A stretch of 64,000 bases of DNA from Eledone cirrhosa. Lineage: Eukaryota. The DNA lies in assembly GCA_964016885.1 (NCBI GenBank), contig OZ024748.1, positions 50,096,001 to 50,160,000 on the forward strand, written 5' to 3'. Shown here one piece after another: positions 15,024-62,702 of this stretch. The position numbers and the translations under genes were made by a program. The notes under the pieces were generated by a model, which did no database searches, was not told the DNA's origin, and was given only the letters and a program-made list of their open reading frames with translations. Within the stretch, counting starts at the first letter, position 1, and every line of letters starts with the position of its first letter.

Positions 15024-15080
15024 CATTCTATATTCTGATGAAGGACTAACGTCCGAAATGTTACTATATTAAGAGTGAAA
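15024..15080 (+). ncRNA. Minimal hammerhead-like motif
   Basis: CTGATGA-A-GGAC(taac)GTCC-GAAA; stems I and III weak or ambiguous. Confidence 0.5.
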
Positions 15081-15445
15081 ATAATATATAACTTCATTGA
15101 CTTAATTGTCTGTCGTATTTTTACTTTTACCATTCACATACACACAAACACACAAACACAAACACACGCGCTCACACACATATACACAAACAAAGACACA
15201 CACACATATACACACACTCACATATATATATATATATATATATATGACGGCGATCAATTTGTTTTGCGAGGTTTTTGATATGAAATCGTGTGTCGAAACA
15301 AATATTATTATACTTGGGGACGGTCATATTGTTGTAATAATATTGCCAGAAATAATAACACTATAAAACTGCTCAAAATCTACGTTGAACACTCTTAAAG
15401 AAGGAAAAAGAAGTTGGCCTTGTTCCTATGTCAGAAAGCATTATA

Positions 15446-17555: not shown

Positions 17556-18339
17556 GACATTGTGTACATTTACCTTACGAAGGGATGTGGGATACGTTAT
17601 TTCAATACTAGGGTGTAAGGGGATCTGGATAGAAGTAGTGTCTAATGACTGTCAACTGCACTCTTTAGAATTGGACAGGTTCACCAGTTCTCATCCAACC
17701 CACTAAAGGTTTCATGCCTGGCGCCTAATGCCAGAGAGAACACGTTCAACAATGTCGTCTTATATAATCCTCTAAACAGATGGGTTGATTACAACAGGAT
17801 TGTCTTTGGTCATTGGTCATCTCAATCAGAATTGTACTAAAGAATACAATCTGCAACATTCCACAGGCACGTGTGGCCTTAATGTAATTCTCAGAGAGAT
17901 TAAGCGTGACAAAGGCTGGCTCTTTGAAATACAGCTCATGTTTGCCAGATGAATAGACTAGATTCTAGACTATTTATCTGGCAAACATCAGCTGTATTTA
18001 GAACAAGATAAAATACCATATGTTTCCCAAGGGCAGAACGCTGTGACCACTAAGCTAGCAGCCTTCACATCTACAGCCATTACAGATATGTATAAACAAT
18101 AATTATCTATAACTGAGTGGAGGAATTTGTTCGTATTGGCCTCGTTAAAAATACTTCATATGATCCCATATATTTTGACAGAGCCGTAGGGTCACCGTAC
18201 TGACATACGGCGTTTCTTGAATAATTTAAGTCTGGCGGAGCCCATCCCTCTCCAGGTCTGAATACAGCAAATTTCTTGCAGACAAAGATTGAGAGTGAGT
18301 GGGAGAAAGTGAGAAAGAGATATAGAAGAAGAATTGACC

Positions 18340-30929: not shown

Positions 30930-31320
30930 TAGAAGAATACCCTGACGATGTTGATCTTTTCTTCTTTTCGGGTTATAGCTACTGTCGCTCAGTGAGTGGG
31001 ATTGGCTCAGCGCACAGCCTTTCCTTACTTTTAAATACGATAGCATTAATTGATAACTATTAAGGGCGGTGGATTGGCAGTATCGGTAGAGGGTCGGACG
31101 CCATGCTTTCCAGCATAGTTACGTCCCTTTACGATCTGAGTTCAAATCCCGCCGAGGTTGACTTTGCCTTTCATCCTTACGGGGTCGATAAAATAAAGTA
31201 CCAGTAATGCACTGGGTAATTGCTGGCCCTGTGCCTAAAGTAGAAACAATTAATTGATAACTATTAATAATGGTATATCGTGCAATGGCCATACTCGATA
31301 ACGAAGGAGCAGCCATCATC
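30930..31320. mobile_element. Older dispersed repeat interrupted by a SINE A copy
   Basis: Segments match 38840-38920 and the reverse complement of 52172-52315. Confidence 0.65.
31065..31250 (+). mobile_element. Full-length young SINE A with 19-bp target site duplication
   Basis: ATTAATTGATAACTATTAA at 31045-31063 and 31249-31267. Confidence 0.95.
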
Positions 31321-37336: not shown

Positions 37337-37845
<509 letters not shown>

Positions 37846-39701: not shown

Positions 39702-40080
<379 letters not shown>

Positions 40081-40085
<5 letters not shown>

Positions 40086-40797
40086 AATACATCTACCAAC
40101 ATATGCGTACAGATGTACACTAATACTAGTAAATATATAAGTTATGTCAAAGTACCTAGGTGGTTCAATGCAGGGGGATGCAGAACAATTATATGAAAGA
40201 CGTAAAATAAGAAAATTTTAAAAATTAAAAATTAACTTACTAAAATTTTCACTCCAACTAATTAGTTTCTGTAATGGGATAAATATAGTTACACAATGTA
40301 ACTATCGAGAATTCATTACGTCATCAGGGAGTCTATTCTCAGCTAAGTCCCCAGGCAATGCGCGGACACTAGGAACCCATATAAAAATAATAATTCAGTG
40401 GATGTAATAAGCTAGCGGGGACTAAATTCCATAGCACTGAAAAAGTTCACTGCCTCTGGTCAGTGGTGGATTCTAAAGAATCAATCACGTGACACTGAGG
40501 TTAGTCAGTTAGGAGTGGGGTGGTATTATGACAAGAGCCTACTACTACTACAATGAATTAGCAGTAGATTTGGTAAGTTTGCTCAACAAATAATTTGGAG
40601 ATAAATATAGAGAATTAATACATCTACCAACATATGCGTCTAATACTAGTAAATATATAAGTTATGTCAAAGTACCTAGGTGGTTCAATGCAGGGGGATG
40701 CAGAACAATTATATGAAAGACGTAAAATAAGAAAATTTTAAAAATTAAAAATTAACTTACTTACTAAAATTTGAGTAAGTAAGTTAATTTTTAATTT
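40081..40797 (-). mobile_element. Retrozyme-like element: ~165-bp direct repeats with 531-bp period, an internal hammerhead and a terminal fold-back
   Basis: 40081-40248 matches 40612-40772; HHR at 40251-40332; hairpin 40742-40797. Confidence 0.75.
40251..40332 (-). ncRNA. Type I hammerhead ribozyme with extended stem II
   Basis: Minus strand: ACTCC-CTGATGA-c-GTAATG..ATAGTTAC(attgt)GTAACTAT..CATTAC-a-GAAAC-TAATTA-GTT-GGAGT. Confidence 0.8.
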
Positions 40798-40869
40798 GAA
40801 CTCAGAATGGCAAGGGCCGTAACTCTATGAGTCAATGCATGGCAGCCGACCCTCTACCGATACTGCCAA
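40795..40869 (-). mobile_element. SINE A 5' fragment
   Basis: TTTGAACTCAGAATGGCAAGGGCCGTAAC...CCTCTACCGATACTGCCAA. Confidence 0.85.
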
Positions 40870-43399: not shown

Positions 43400-43917
43400 G
43401 TATGTATGTGTGTGTCTGCACACAGACACACACATACACATACACATACATATATGCAAATAAATATGAAAGTTATTGAAAGGAAAAATATAAAAAATAA
43501 ATACACACACACACACACACATATATATACACACACATACATACATACACACACATACATATACACACACAAGAAATTTACCTGACAAGTTCAGAAACTA
43601 ATTTGGAATGCTAATGGTTTAATTTGCGACCTAATGTTTTGGTCATTGACAAGACACAAGCTGCTGCTAGAAATGGTCGATAGGACATTAGTGGAACCAA
43701 CTAATTATCTAGACCCCTTCAAGCCTGCATTTTCTCGCCCCACCTTCACTGCAATCAATAATATTTCAGGCGTTCATTTCTTTCCTAACACTAGAATATT
43801 TTTTAAACGCCATTTTCTACTTACCCTCTAAATAGGTTTTTTTCACTGTTTGGTAACGATTCCAGTTCTAATCAATGCACACCACGCAGCAATGGTTACT
43901 GTATGTGTGTGTGGTAG

Positions 43918-43963
<46 letters not shown>

Positions 43964-44012
43964 ACGTGTATACATACATATATACATAATATATATATAT
44001 ATGTGCATGTAT

Positions 44013-44070
<58 letters not shown>

Positions 44071-44077
44071 TATATAT

Positions 44078-44303
44078 CAAATCTATTTATCTATAAAACT
44101 GTCTATATTGTATTTTGTCTGAGGAAGGCATAGCATATTGTTAATATGATATCCCTGAAATATATATAATGAAATAGATATGGTTTTATAAATATAGTTT
44201 CCATTTATTTAATATCGTAAATATACTCCAAATACTTGTTGAGTGCTTTTATATCAGTTATAAATATTTACTAGTTGTAACCCAACAATTTAAATATAAC
44301 TTT
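44078..44303 (+). mobile_element. Family A-HHR ~225-bp element in (TA)n
   Basis: Homologous to the reverse complement of 45695-45918. Confidence 0.85.
44111..44176 (+). ncRNA. Type I hammerhead ribozyme (family A-HHR)
   Basis: TATTTTGT-CTGAGGA-AGGcATAgCATATT(gtt)AATATGaTATcCCT-GAAA-TATATATA-ATGAAATA. Confidence 0.8.
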
Positions 44304-44356
<53 letters not shown>

Positions 44357-44357
44357 T

Positions 44358-44600
44358 TATTTATTAAACTAACAGATTAAAGTTTAAGCAAAGAATCGCT
44401 GCTTTCACCCTTAACGGGATCTTCTGAAACTAACGAAGTCAATCTGTTAATTTCAGAAGATCCCCTTAAGGGTGAAAGCAGCGATTCTTTGCTTAAACTT
44501 TAATCTGTTATTTTAATAAATATTTGCTCTACGGTTCTTATATATTTGATATATATTTATCCTTATCGAGCCCTCTTGGGATTTTAGTCTTCAAATTTAT
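44358..44600. mobile_element. Family C fold-back element with tail
   Basis: Inverted arms meet at ~44447; HHR-like fold on the minus strand at 44372-44447 and on the plus strand from ~44450. Confidence 0.88.
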
Positions 44601-44622
44601 TATTATTATTATTGCTTGACAT

Positions 44623-44706
44623 GGCCTTTCATCCTTACAGGGTCGACAAAATAAAGTACCAGTAATGCACTGGGTAATTGCTGGCCTTGTGCCAAAAGTA
44701 GAAACA

Positions 44707-44710
<4 letters not shown>
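44623..44710 (+). mobile_element. SINE A 3' fragment with (ATT)n tail
   Basis: GCCTTTCATCCTTACAGGGTCGAC...GTAGAAACAATT(ATT)n. Confidence 0.88.
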
Positions 44711-44754
<44 letters not shown>

Positions 44755-44998
44755 ATATATATATATAGATAGATAGAAGGAGAAGAAACACGATGAAGTT
44801 TCGTTTACATGTATCTATTTTTTTATTGTTACGCTCGTTTCGCAGATGATTGGCTCGAGGTTATCATGGAGTCGGGTGTATAGATCATGTGCGAAACGCG
44901 CGTAACAGGGCGATACACAATAAAAACATAAATACATGGAAACTAAACATTCTCGTTTTCCTTACTGCCTGTGCACCGAGTTCTCATATTGCTACCTA

Positions 44999-45076
<78 letters not shown>

Positions 45077-45082
<6 letters not shown>

Positions 45083-45260
45083 GTGCGGTTTTTGTTACAA
45101 AATGAAAAATAACCGAGGTGTCCTACACGAGTGGAAGTATAAAGAAAAAGAGATGAAATCGAACATGCAACTTAAGTCTTATTTTTTTTTTAAATATATA
45201 TATTTAAAAAAAAAATAAGACCTTCAGTTGCATTTTCGATTTCATCCCTTTTTCTTTATA
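45077..45260. mobile_element. Family F fold-back element (~60-bp arms spanning 45138-45260, plus ~60-bp tail)
   Basis: Palindrome centred at ~45198; homologous to 53390-53490. Confidence 0.85.
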
Positions 45261-45404
45261 TATATATATATATATTGTAAACTTGACTGTCACCACTGAA
45301 TATGAACCTGGAGATTACGAAAACATGAAAGTACTTGTTCAATTAACATTTAACATTTAATATTCTACCATACTATTTCATTATAATATCATCATAACTT
45401 TAAA

Positions 45405-45591
45405 GGCGGTGAATTGGCAGTATCGGTAGAGGGTTGGACGCCATGCTTTCTAGCACAGTTACGTCCCTTTACGGTCTGAGTTCAAATCCCGCCGAGGTTA
45501 ACTTTGCCTTTCATCCTTACGGGGTCGATAAAATAAAGTACCAGTAATGCACTGCGTAATTGCTGGCCTTGTGCCTAAAGGAGAAACAATT
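45405..45591 (+). mobile_element. Full-length SINE A with ~11-bp target site duplication
   Basis: ATAACTTTAAA at 45394-45404 and 45592-45602. Confidence 0.93.
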
Positions 45592-45650
45592 ATAACTTTA
45601 AAGTATTGTAAATAAAACGAGTAAATCAGACAAAGTTGGAATTCCTTTTA

Positions 45651-45696
<46 letters not shown>

Positions 45697-45822
45697 TTCT
45701 ATTTAAATTGTCTGGATACAACAAGCAAATATTTTTATAACTGATATAAAGCACTCAAGAAATTATTGGAGTAAAAATACGATATATTAACAAATGGAAA
45801 CTATATTTATAAAACCATGTTT

Positions 45823-45885
45823 TTTTCATTATACATATTTCAAGGACACCAAGTTAAATTATGGTGCGCTTTCATCAGATAAAAT
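45823..45885 (-). ncRNA. Type I hammerhead ribozyme (family A-HHR; element 45695-45918)
   Basis: Minus strand: TTTTAT-CTGATGA-AAGcGCACCA..TGGTGTcCTT-GAAA-TATGTATA-ATGAAA. Confidence 0.8.
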
Positions 45886-45977
45886 ATAATATAGATCAGT
45901 TTTATAAATAAATATTGACATACCCTTAAAGAATGCGACCATTTCTGTTGGAAGCTCCCTGATATATATATATATAC

Positions 45978-46053
<76 letters not shown>

Positions 46054-46140
46054 GTATACATACATATATATAGTGTGCGTGTATGATTACTGGTGATAGT
46101 TCCAATATATATATGTATATATATAAATATATATATATGA

Positions 46141-46294
46141 AGTAATTCCGTCGGAAAAGTCCAGGAAAAAAGAGTGCTCTATGTAGGTAACAGAGCTTAA
46201 TAGTTATGTAATAAACAACATAAGGCAATTATTCCATTACCAGTCTATGTAGGTAAATGGAATAATTGCCTTATGTTGTTTATTACATAACTAT
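46141..46294. mobile_element. Family G fold-back element (arms 46200-46241 / 46252-46294, plus ~60-bp tail)
   Basis: Near-perfect inverted arms; homologous to 4889-4990. Confidence 0.85.
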
Positions 46295-47674
46295 ATATAT
46301 ATATATATATGTATATATATACAATATCTAGAAAGGATAACACACTAGAGAGAGAGAGAGAGTGTGTGTAAAATATGTAAACCCAATCTCTATAACTATA
46401 TATCACACACGTACAAATCCAAAGAGATTTATTTTGCCAAAAAATTATTGACTGAAATGGAAACACCTATGGGTCATCAGCGTGTGTTAACTCTTTAGTG
46501 TTCAAACCGGCCAAAACCGGCCAAAACCGGCCAGAATTCTATACCTCTTTCTGTTGAAACTGGCTGTAACTGGTCGTTCAAACTGATGCTAAGGTATTAT
46601 TCTCAAAATAAATACTTTCAAAATCTCATAGATTCGATACTATGTGAGATAATTATGTGAGGTAAAGTCTTTACCATGAAAATATGATAGTATATATAGA
46701 GTAATGTAAATGCTAAAGGGTTAAGTAAATATATTCCAGACAACTCTAAGAAAATATAAGATAACCGTCTTGCAACACATGGTAGAGAGATGTTACAGCG
46801 TGCATAGGACAGTGAACCAGTGGTATTCGTGGGACGAGCTGTTAGAAATGGCAGCCCAAAACCACTCAAAGAAACGTGCTCAACCAAACGGAGTGAGAGG
46901 AAAGTTTGTTATAAGAAGCGAAATATTAAGATAAATTAACGTTGCCATAGGCTCGCGTTTGTCCCTCTGAATTATGTTCTCAAATTAAAAGGAGTCCTGA
47001 GCTCTTCTTTTGAGCACATAATTTACAGGGACTAACGTATGTCTATGGCTCCGTTAATATATATATATGTGTGTGTGTGTGTGTGTATGTGTATACAACC
47101 ATATTCAATTGCCAAAAACTAGAGTTTGCGTTATATGTACAAAGAATATCTGTTCGTATACACCTCCTCGCTAACATGTGTTTTTTTTATTAAAAACAAA
47201 CCAGTTTACTTTTGAATGCTCCCACATGGATGCATATGTAATATCTTTTCAATTGATGTGTGATATAACCTGAATGTAGTTTGAAATTTAAATGACTAAG
47301 TGAAATTGTAAAATAACGGAAGTATTTTTATATAATTTAACTTAAGAGAGGGTAAAATAAAAACCGAGACTTGGGCACAAATCAGAATTACTTTGAAGAG
47401 ATAAACTATATGTATGGCTACTAAGTTTAACAAAAGGTGTGCACAATTGCTTCTGCATTCATTGAAATGACTTGTTCATTTAAAATACCCAACGAATAAT
47501 AATAATTAAACAGCGCAACGATATACAGATGTTGAAGATTTATATTTAATGCGCTGAAATGTCCGTGACTCCCAGCAGACGAATGTCTCTTGTTTGTGCT
47601 TTCCTTTAATTTCTAAATACACTTTATCAGTAAACACAGAGCCCCTTGTTTCTCTTAAATATATATATATATAT

Positions 47675-53096: not shown

Positions 53097-53296
53097 CGAA
53101 AGAAGTGTGGTAAGGAACCAGGTGGACCATAACGCACCACAAGAGTACTCAATACTTAGGGTAGTAGAGTGGGTAATAGGAAAACGTTTAACCCCGACAG
53201 CAGAGCTCAAGCCGTTTCGTCGACTATTTCTGGACTGAGTCCAAAAATAGCCGTCGAAACGGCTTGAGCTTTGCTGTCGGGGTTAAATATTTTCCT
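53095..53296. mobile_element. Family B fold-back element
   Basis: Tail plus hairpin centred at ~53237. Confidence 0.9.
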
Positions 53297-53484: not shown

Positions 53485-53526
<42 letters not shown>

Positions 53527-53529
<3 letters not shown>

Positions 53530-53735
53530 AAAGAGTAGGACCCCGACGGCTGAGCTCAAGCCGTTTCGACGGCTAATTCTGGACTGTACATTTTTAGTCC
53601 AGAATTAGCCGTCGAAACGGCTTGAGCTCAGCCGTCGGGGTCCTACTCGTTCCTATTACCTACTCTACTACCCTAAGTATTGAGTACTTTGGTGCGTTAT
53701 GGTCCACCTGGTTCCTTACCACATTTCCATCGTTA
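53527..53735. mobile_element. Family B fold-back element, opposite orientation
   Basis: ~58-bp arms centred at ~53590; tail on the right. Confidence 0.9.
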
Positions 53736-55725: not shown

Positions 55726-56039
55726 AGAACTTCTCCCATCTTTTCCAGGAGATCTATATTGGAAACTCCCAATATAAACATACATACATTCATATAAAAA
55801 AAACAAAAGATGATCCTTCCAAACATCTTATTAAATGGCACGAGTGATATACCCAATCCTATATATATATATATATATATGGGGAGGGGTGCATGTATGT
55901 GTATGCGTATGTGTGTGTGTGCGTGTGTGTGTGTGCGTGTGTGTGTGCGTGTGCGTGCACGACAAACGAGTAATAAGAATACTCAATGCAGACATAGAGT
56001 TCACCTATTCGTTTATTATGTTAACTATAACTAAGTATT

Positions 56040-56103
56040 GAGTCTTATTACTCTGGAGTTTCACCTGCGGACTTGCAGGTGAAACTCAAGAATAATAAGA
56101 CTC
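56040..56103. repeat. ~29-bp-arm hairpin; related segment at 56695-56728
   Basis: GAGTCTTATTA..GAGTTTCACCTGC(ggactt)GCAGGTGAAACTC..TAATAAGACTC. Confidence 0.85.
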
Positions 56104-56124
56104 ACTTCTTAGCTATATCAAATG

Positions 56125-56273: not shown

Positions 56274-56333
<60 letters not shown>

Positions 56334-56385
56334 AATCTATATTAATTCAAAATATTAACAAAATAGATATTCTTGTGATTCAGTA

Positions 56386-56452
56386 TATTTTATTATATAT
56401 ATTTCAGAGGTACTGAGTTAAGTTCAACAGTACGTCCTCATCAGATAAAATA
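56386..56452 (-). ncRNA. Type I hammerhead ribozyme (family A-HHR)
   Basis: Minus strand: TATTTTAT-CTGATGA-GGAcGTACTG..CAGTACcTCT-GAAA-TATATATA-ATAAAATA; perfect 8-bp stem I. Confidence 0.85.
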
Positions 56453-56582
56453 AGATGATGCATGACATACCCTGACATAGTAGATGGTTAAGATTGAGTC
56501 ATGGAAGTGAGTAATATAGGAGTGCTTCCAATCTATTGTAAAACTCATTCTTTGATTTATTCATTGAACCTTGTTTAACTTT

Positions 56583-59940: not shown

Positions 59941-60306
59941 TTCAAATCCCGTCGAGGTTAACTTTGCGTTTCATCCTTACGGGGTCTATAAAAAAGTACC
60001 AGTAATTTACTGGTAGAATTGCTGTCCTTGTGCCAAAAGTAGAAACGATGATATTACATTATATATATATAATGTATATAATATATATATATATATATAC
60101 AATATATATATAGGGCGGTGGATTTGCAGTATCGGTAGCGGGTCGGACGCCATGCTTTGACGCATTGAGTTACGGCCCTTGCCATTCTGAGTTCAAATCC
60201 CGCTGAGGTTAACTTTGCCTTTCATACTTACGGGGTCGATAAAATAAAATAAAATACCAGTAATGAACTGGGTATTTGCTGGCCTTGTGCCAAAAGTAGA
60301 AACAAT
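59941..60306 (+). mobile_element. Two SINE A copies (59941-60046 partial; 60113-60306 full)
   Basis: Homology to the SINE A consensus. Confidence 0.9.
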
Positions 60307-60310
60307 TTTA

Positions 60311-60347
<37 letters not shown>

Positions 60348-60384
60348 ATGATATTAATAAATTGAAACTATATTTATAAATCAA

Positions 60385-60450
60385 TATATTCTATTATATA
60401 TATTTCAAGGGTACCAAAACTTTCGGTACGCTCTCATCAGATAAAATACA
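60385..60450 (-). ncRNA. Type I hammerhead ribozyme (family A-HHR)
   Basis: Minus strand: TGTATTTTAT-CTGATGA-GAGcGTACCGAA..TTTGGTACcCTT-GAAA-TATATATA-ATAGAATATA. Confidence 0.85.
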
Positions 60451-60496
60451 AAATTTGTTTTATAAATACCCAGGAATCAGACCTTAACATAATATA

Positions 60497-60639
60497 ATTG
60501 TTTCTACTTTAGGCACTTTATTTTATCGACCCCGTGAGGATGAAAGGCAAAGTTAACCTCGGCGGGATTTGAACTCAGACTGTAAAGGGACGTAACTATG
60601 CTAGAAAGCATGGCGTCCAACCCTCTACCGATACTGCCA
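60497..60639 (-). mobile_element. SINE A with internal deletion
   Basis: Reverse complement of the consensus, lacking the GTACCAG...GGCCTTGT segment. Confidence 0.9.
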
Positions 60640-62278: not shown

Positions 62279-62516
62279 CTTAAAACCAAAACTGAATACT
62301 AACCAATACAATTACTAATTCTCACTTATTCCTAATTAAACTATTTTTCACTGTGAACAATTTGTCAGCATTTTCTATTCCGTTTACCAATATATATATG
62401 TATATATATGTGTCTGTGTCTGTGTGTGTGTGTATGTGTGTGTGTGTATATAATACATACATATGATAAAAGAGAGATAAGTTTTTAAATGCCAGTACAA
62501 TGTAGTAGAAATATAT

Positions 62517-62702
62517 AATTGTTTCTACTTTAGGCACAAGGCCAGCAATTACCCAGTGCATTACTGGTACTTTATTTTATCGACCCCGTAAGGATGAAAG
62601 GCAAAGTCAACCTCGGCGGGATTTGAACTCAGATCGTAAAGGGACGTAGCTATGCTGGAAAGCATGGCGTCCGACCCTCTACTGATACTGCCAATCCACC
62701 GC
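62517..62702 (-). mobile_element. Full-length young SINE A
   Basis: Near-identical reverse complement of 31065-31250. Confidence 0.93.

Follow-up and report, generated by a model that had tools for sequence, protein, structure and literature searches.

Predicted hammerheads with an unpaired stem II cytosine in Hydra-type Penelope-like retroelements of Eledone cirrhosa

Four diverged hammerhead-like motifs lie in a 64,000-nucleotide stretch of the Eledone cirrhosa genome (GCA_964016885.1, contig OZ024748.1, positions 50,096,001 to 50,160,000; hereafter the window), raising the question of whether they are genuine ribozyme folds, which element carries them, and what a mismatch common to their second stem is for. 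Scanning the window for the conserved boxes and a pairing stem II, with pair 4 left free and no mismatch assumed, returned six loose matches, four of which also possess a full stem III and stem I. These CUGANGA-stem II-GAAA matches lie at 44119-44160 on the plus strand and at 45878-45838, 56444-56402 and 60440-60403 on the minus strand; neither stem III nor stem I is present at the two remaining ones, 48186 and 42484. In 40 runs of an order-4 Markov simulation of the window, loose matches averaged 0.175 and never exceeded 1. All four motifs contain the CUGANGA and GAA boxes, A15.1-U16.1 and a NUH triplet, an invariance of the core columns that is partly due to selection by the search pattern itself. 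Rfam yielded no match at the gathering score in the whole window, and none of its hammerhead families reached E<=10 within 43900-46100. A covariance model built from 33 family representatives recovers the four motifs by construction, plus two weak matches, and MFE folding (z = -0.8, -2.1, -1.1 and -2.6) provides weakly significant evidence by itself. The stem II letters are exactly those quoted in the sequence-only reading from which this work started, pairing in every copy despite their divergence, with double-sided changes at pairs 2, 3, 5 and 6 among the four. C indeed faces C at pair 4 in each of them, and position 7 varies as described (G in the 44119 copy, U in the other three). By contrast, the single stem III palindrome proposed for all copies, TATATATA, does not extend to the 45878 copy, which has ATATGTAT, although the AUA triplet is found in 4/4. 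The four motifs are real and are predicted type I hammerhead folds; selection for their structure is supported by covariation in the wider set described below. The features of the window, with matching loci elsewhere in the genome given by their L numbers, are as follows, PLE standing for Penelope-like retroelement.

44078..44305, plus strand: putative 5'-truncated terminal (pLTR) fragment of a Hydra-type PLE, 91% to L099/L100; long ('tailed') end about +150 from GAA, (TA)n at both flanks
44111..44176, plus strand: predicted hammerhead 1; core 44119-44125 (position 7 = G), stem II 44126-44156, C10.4 at 44129 opposite C11.4 at 44153, GAA 44157-44159, stem III 44160-44167, predicted cut after 44168 (AUA)
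45695..45955, minus strand: putative 5'-truncated terminal fragment of a sister subfamily, 88% to L191; long end, passing into (TA)n at 45654-45694
45822..45886, minus strand: predicted hammerhead 2; core 45878-45872, stem II 45871-45842, C10.4 at 45868 opposite C at 45845, stem III ATATGTAT, predicted cut after 45830 (AUA)
56333..56521, minus strand: putative terminal fragment of a third subfamily, 91-93% to L139 and L151; short end (about +70) into (TA)n
56386..56452, minus strand: predicted hammerhead 3; core 56444-56438, stem II 56437-56406, C10.4 at 56434 opposite C at 56409, predicted cut after 56394 (AUA)
60341..60489, minus strand: putative terminal fragment of family A, the subfamily directly tied to an ORF; short end (+65) into (TA)n
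60387..60448, minus strand: predicted hammerhead 4; core 60440-60434, stem II 60433-60407, C10.4 at 60430 opposite C at 60410, predicted cut after 60395 (AUA)
37492..37534, plus strand: probable fifth, decayed member, from the covariance model (22.9 bits, rough E 8e-4)

In the probable fifth member the core is intact, C again faces C at pair 4 of a shortened stem II, stem III reads ATGTGCAT-A, and stem I is broken at its first pair. Because the 44078 and 45695 copies are convergent and of different subfamilies, they represent two insertions and not inverted partners. The ORF listing of the window holds microsatellite frames only, and tblastn detected no PLE ORF or ORF remnant in it. Several other repeats share the window. 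A classical minimal hammerhead of another family, with a bulged A and a G-C closing pair and without stem III, lies at 15026-15091 (plus strand), where it was picked up as the second weak match of the covariance model, and has relatives in L016, L164 and L194. Near-perfect hairpin palindromes of 60-165 bp occur at 44357-44523, 17926-18000, 39891-40012, 40738-40801 and 46195-46299, and further ones at 53186-53288, 53522-53659, 56036-56107 and 45138-45262, many with TA runs ending both arms; that at 44357-44523 recurs in L112, and three of the window's palindromes have one sequence family in common. Their probable source is other PLE ends, left as head-to-head remnants, or else foldback elements. 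Finally, at least 10 window copies (45399-45605, 60116-60307, 60512-60637, 31057-31252 and 62515-62701, among others) belong to an abundant SINE, about 190 bp long and tRNA-like at its head, which presumably resembles octopus tRNA-derived SINEs; ARAGORN identified no tRNA.

To what extent do these motifs belong to a larger family? A DNA search of the 3.0-Gb genome (1,796 contigs) with 44078-44305, by a tool that passes over common words, gave no match, and patterns were used in its place. There are 2,010 exact occurrences of a 24-mer taken from the 60440 copy. A pattern with a pure-TA stem III (core plus 18-36 free bases) matched 26,574 times, against 23 for its control, and one with other stem III centres (ATATGTAT, ATGTTCAT, ATGTGCAT and others) matched 29,350 times, a figure that contains a few double counts via an internal core-like word, against 3. 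The two patterns thus give about 56,000 motif copies in total, and the four window hammerheads are therefore not a local family; since position 7 was fixed as U in both patterns, these counts are too low. Many matches form head-to-head pairs, with 100-250 bp between them or, where they flank ORF remnants, 1-4 kb. Two mismatch-type hammerheads, at L166:2443 (plus strand) and L205:4599 (minus strand), were each seen as a single copy and have an AUC triplet rather than AUA. In a related family with a very long stem II of about 16 bp (L034:7626 and L135:1980, both on the minus strand, L196, L197 and L202), pair 4 is C-U and stem III is a G-C-rich palindrome, ATGCGCAT; no ORF for it was found.

We aligned representatives of this larger family, taken from 188 distinct copies in 55 clusters. 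The 33 representatives, 30 cluster medoids and three window copies, were hand-picked and are mutually related; the 25 clusters left out comprise near-duplicates, copies with a TA end, a single match due to chance, and three singletons in which pair 4 is standard (L094+2089, L186 and L179), apparently point mutants within mismatch families. The selection on ribozyme structure proposed from the four window copies holds in this larger alignment, where 109 double-change cells were counted versus 34.5 in shuffles, counts that are not probabilities because the rows are related, and where the covariation score reached 0.53 versus 0.09-0.21 for slid controls. Double changes affect 7/8 pairs of stem I, which is open, 6/7 of stem II and 1/3 of stem III, with 12, 21, 14 and 11 of them at pairs 2, 3, 5 and 6, respectively. 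The third stem III pair is A-U in 27/33 representatives and G-C in 5/33, a covariation that fits a self-complementary dimer stem, not a TA mimic. The octamers that form stem III are self-complementary, in several cases around a G-U, U-U or C-G centre, and so fit the dimer model as given in the available parts of PMC4209133 and PMC3088659. The G10.1-C11.1 closing pair is present in only 3/33 representatives; natural U-U exceptions to it are described in PMC3088659 and PMC7229834.

To identify the host element, we ran a protein search of the genome, obtaining 150 scored copies, and inspected 20 loci chosen for their long ORFs. The family hammerhead was found on the ORF strand past the endonuclease in 10/20 loci, at 0.5-1.3 kb (nine of them at 1.0-1.3 kb), and an inverted hammerhead copy upstream in 9/20. 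The sequence that follows the hammerhead continues into the ATG in 3/8 loci read upstream, two of these three including the hammerhead itself, and the ATG lies about 216 nt after the G of GAA. Since the post-hammerhead sequence reaches the ATG, what lies 3' of the cut is 5' UTR, which places the motif in a pLTR. The order in long copies is pLTR with hammerhead, about 216 nt, ATG, RT, GIY-YIG endonuclease, a 3' UTR of 1.1-1.3 kb, hammerhead and end, which gives a unit of about 3.7 kb (about 0.2 + 2.25 + 1.2 kb). This arrangement, in which a hammerhead with a short palindromic helix III occupies pLTRs flanking an RT-EN ORF, is the one by which PLE hammerheads are recognized. The RT and the C-terminal GIY-YIG EN both fall within one open frame of 637 aa, which contains the RT core, RWR (K>R relative to RWK) and DKT; by eye, the CxCx5C linker, CxxC and CxH are present and CCHH is absent. 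The ORF matched 887 proteins at E<=1e-20, the best 120 of which are 32-43% identical; among full-length homologs in this identity range, one is annotated PF01541 and one PF00078. A direct Pfam scan returned nothing in 3/3 pieces of the ORF, and a PDB search with it gave no match. From the ORF motifs, compared by eye with published Hydra proteins, the host appears to be a Hydra-clade PLE. No ORF of its own could be linked to the 56386 subfamily. The ORF beside the hammerhead in L139/L210 was dropped as a partner, as it is that of another Hydra family, whose own hammerhead is free of the mismatch, and the Neptune-like and Poseidon-like ORFs beside copies in L020, L034 and L011 are neighbours, not the hammerhead's partner. 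A GIY-YIG PLE family with a CxxxxCxxC linker (L020:2311-2820 and L034:3723-4298, both on the minus strand, and L092), which we take to be Neptune-like, often adjoins Hydra copies within shared TA tracts. Mismatch-free hammerhead families also occur (L210:1-1900 on the minus strand, L052, L061, L208, L034, L198, L097 and L085), with stem III centres ACTAGT, ACGCGT and ACCACTGGT, one of them downstream of a second Hydra-type ORF.

Insertion into (TA)n is seen for window and genome copies alike, and the window copies are, as read from these comparisons, short ORF-less end fragments of Hydra-type PLEs inserted in (TA)n. Could they instead be non-autonomous retrozymes, tandem repeats of 150-450 bp that make circular RNAs? 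Their size (150-260 bp), the lack of an ORF and the type I hammerhead resemble the elements of PMC7229834. However, there is no tandem array at 44078-45918, head-to-tail repeats of 150-450 bp were found in neither window nor genome copies, which are single or in inverted pairs with variable 5' ends, and long copies continue upstream into the 3' UTR and ORF. We thus regard a retrozyme origin as highly improbable, and retain the assignment to PLE ends.

The sequence-only reading considered the C·C mismatch to be invariant. Genome-wide, this applies to the 5' C only, while its 3' partner varies: C10.4 faces C in 28/33 family representatives, U in 4/33 and A in 1/33, and as one family has U and some subfamilies A, the rule becomes C10.4 opposite C, U or A. 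Sampling that made no assumption on pair 4 gave 88 distinct stem II sequences, of which 86 leave this pair open and 81 have C-C there, compared with standard pairing in 72-86 of the 88 at pairs 1-3 and 5-8; in the representatives pair 4 is standard in 0/33. C10.4 is kept in 94% of copies. The 5' C is absent in 1,604 of 26,574, mostly through scattered C>T changes in known families among the matches listed, and closure as C-G is found in 279 of about 56,000 (~0.5%), again scattered among the matches listed. The mismatch is common to families whose EN is 50% (L188-L191, 4 loci) and 40-44% (L031 and L204, 2 loci) identical to that of family A, and absent from another Hydra family in this genome (RT 44-57% identical) and from several other hammerhead families. 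An EN tree of 150 columns groups families A and B (98/97) and leaves family D unplaced, so that the depth of C10.4 conservation rests on these identities.

Such a mismatch might have been inherited from one ancestor without any function, in young copies evolving neutrally. All families are indeed related (31/33 chain by flank similarity, at a loose threshold), other Hydra hammerheads, one of them in this same genome, work without a mismatch, and individual copies decay neutrally, so that the genome-wide counts mostly mirror master copies. However, the commonest base accounts for only 11-21 of 33 representatives at pairs 2, 3, 5 and 6 while C10.4 stays in 31/33, the partner became U or A but never G in a family, and the linked proteins are 40-50% identical. 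We therefore hold functionless inheritance to be unlikely, and the unpaired C10.4 likely has a role of its own. Four permutation tests gave no Watson-Crick partner for C10.4 or loop 2 in the flanks (P 0.11-0.81), a result that lends a contact role no direct support. A pseudoknot between loop 2 and the 5' flank had looked credible by eye in family A but did not pass its permutation test, which the stem I controls passed.

We then asked whether the cleavage site imitates the insertion target, as had been suggested from the (UA)n motif of stem III. The genome does not bear this out. TATATATA is absent from over half of the motif copies, and at most 145 of the 26,574 pure-TA copies (0.55%) pass from stem III into (TA)n, a list that itself contains families with a normally non-TA stem III and TA expansions inside continuing copies. 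In a set of 89 family-A-like copies, the end falls at +59-75 in 46 and at +140-170 in 31; a single copy stops at the cut site, and the remaining 11 stop elsewhere. The two main ends, about +65 and +155 past the core, thus lie downstream of the cut site; both coincide with short TA-rich stretches of the element, whereas the run in stem III and another TA run, near +110, are passed over. Inverted head-to-head pairs combine a long and a short arm in 28/36 cases and two long arms in none; the others are 3 short with intermediate, 1 short with short, and 4 with one arm unscored. The difference between the two end sites corresponds to a PLE 'tail' of about 95 nt. Contigs from three sequencing runs, compared with the stretch, yielded no information on copy ends or expression. 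According to these data, the idea that cutting after (UA)n lets the RNA 3' end anneal to nicked (TA)n and prime reverse transcription is largely refuted as the main route, and we give it very little credence, even though the element targets (TA)n, the stem III of 3/4 window copies and 26,574 genome matches is pure TA, and a few copies do end at stem III (L019+): it is contradicted by the rarity of passage into (TA)n at stem III, by the 29,350 matches with non-TA centres, and by the 77/89 copies that end at two sites well downstream.

We consider it probable that the four motifs are predicted type I hammerheads in pLTRs of Hydra-type PLEs, present here as ORF-less end fragments in (TA)n, and that selection likely maintains C10.4 for docking or protein contact and not as a target mimic. 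In the proposed scheme, the element's protein would bind the pLTR-ORF-pLTR transcript and nick (TA)n on both strands, and each nick would prime reverse transcription at one of two internal sites, with the RNA uncut or religated. Such twin priming would yield the head-to-head pairs, long in one arm and short in the other, plus the many truncated ends. The ribozyme would be weak, with a weak first pair in stem II, a self-complementary stem III of 2-3 bp and AUA, a slow triplet that is known from nature and cleaved most slowly among four compared (PMC1636495). It would cleave only when two pLTRs form a dimer and/or the element's protein is bound, and cleavage would free a unit-length RNA whose 5' end is the 5' UTR of the ORF. 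The C-H mismatch would most likely serve an assisted folding step.

The weak first pair, AUA and tiny stem III would equally suit a fold kept as a protein-binding or packaging signal after loss of cleavage; genomic copies retain sequence on either side of the cut site, and the anole PLE can do without cleavage in vitro (PMC11167929). On the other hand, the catalytic boxes, A15.1-U16.1 and a cleavable H17 are all kept, an argument that is partly circular because the search patterns selected for these residues. We believe that a signal devoid of cleavage is improbable, and favor the assisted ribozyme. A bolder version of it, which we advance tentatively as a minority possibility, is that these hammerheads form an undescribed subclass in which the unpaired C10.4 replaces the usual loop-loop contact as the switch by which the element's RT-endonuclease, or the dimer partner ribozyme, turns on cleavage, coupled to strict twin priming at +65 and +155. 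If C10.4 were such a switch, the ~56,000 natural variants of this one genome would amount to a mutational scan, already made in nature, covering both a protein-assisted ribozyme and PLE integration.

Host element, ribozyme and target preference are all of known kinds; PLE hammerheads, palindromic stem III, (TA)n targeting, the octopus Hydra family, the tail and the natural AUA triplet have all been published. Neither the conserved stem II mismatch nor its hammerhead family turned up in our literature searches, in the published Hydra hammerhead table or in the 56-motif alignment; Lunse et al. 2017, reportedly dealing with PLE-associated dimeric hammerheads (cited in PMC6765202), may contain such a variant. 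We see here a real and well-supported structural variant; its ribozyme type and its retroelement clade are both known, and its activity and the role of the mismatch we infer from sequence. The function of PLE hammerheads is an open question (PMC8557442, PMC11167929), on which the variant offers two handles, one conserved unpaired base that no amplified lineage has closed, and a near-strict one-long-one-short rule of inverted pairs that predicts two priming sites.

Set against the available parts of PMC8557442, the element resembles Hydra-clade PLEs, including Hydra-1_Obim of Octopus bimaculoides, in its C-terminal GIY-YIG, RW[K/R], DKT, CxCx5C, CxxC and CxH, in its (TA)n targets, in a hammerhead near the 3' end, in inverted 5'-truncated partners and in a tail at one end. 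Hydra-1_Obim itself targets (TA)n and carries a hammerhead unlike the Eledone ones. Published Hydra hammerheads have GUH triplets, and neither C-H at pair 4 nor AUA occurs in any of the 26 rows of File S2 of that paper. The unit is longer here (about 3.7 kb, versus generally <3 kb for Hydra, a tendency and not a strict criterion), as is the tail (about 95 nt versus 30-40 bp), and the about 56,000 motif copies, the long 3' UTR and the families are distinct from published Hydra. With the minimal PLE hammerheads of Cervera and De la Pena 2014 (PMC4209133), again as far as its available parts extend, our motifs share a type I fold in pLTRs, a long helix II, a dimer-suited palindromic helix III, many covarying families and opposite-strand pairs 100-700 bp apart. 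The consensus of that paper has a bulged base after A9 and G10.1-C11.1, whereas here the first pair is mostly A-U, G-U or U-U and is followed by C-H at pair 4; in the 56 representatives of its Fig. S3, compared by eye, helix II mismatches are isolated (C-A in S. purpuratus 1) and none is described there as conserved. Metazoan non-LTR retrozymes (PMC7229834, available parts) likewise have short type I hammerhead repeats with a dimer-dependent helix III, but these are tandem arrays with canonical loop-loop contacts, unlike the dispersed truncated PLE ends described here. The Poseidon PLE of Anolis (Frangieh et al. 2024, PMC11167929, available parts) has a protein-assisted hammerhead whose cleavage is unneeded for insertion, and its RT starts at two internal sites. 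As in Eledone, its hammerhead is located at the pLTR-ORF junction and both strands are extended, with two RT start sites downstream of the cut defining the tail, to which our two copy-end sites would correspond. Poseidon belongs to another clade, and its start sites lie inside the ORF without target homology, whereas both ends here fall in the 5' UTR at short TA-rich stretches.
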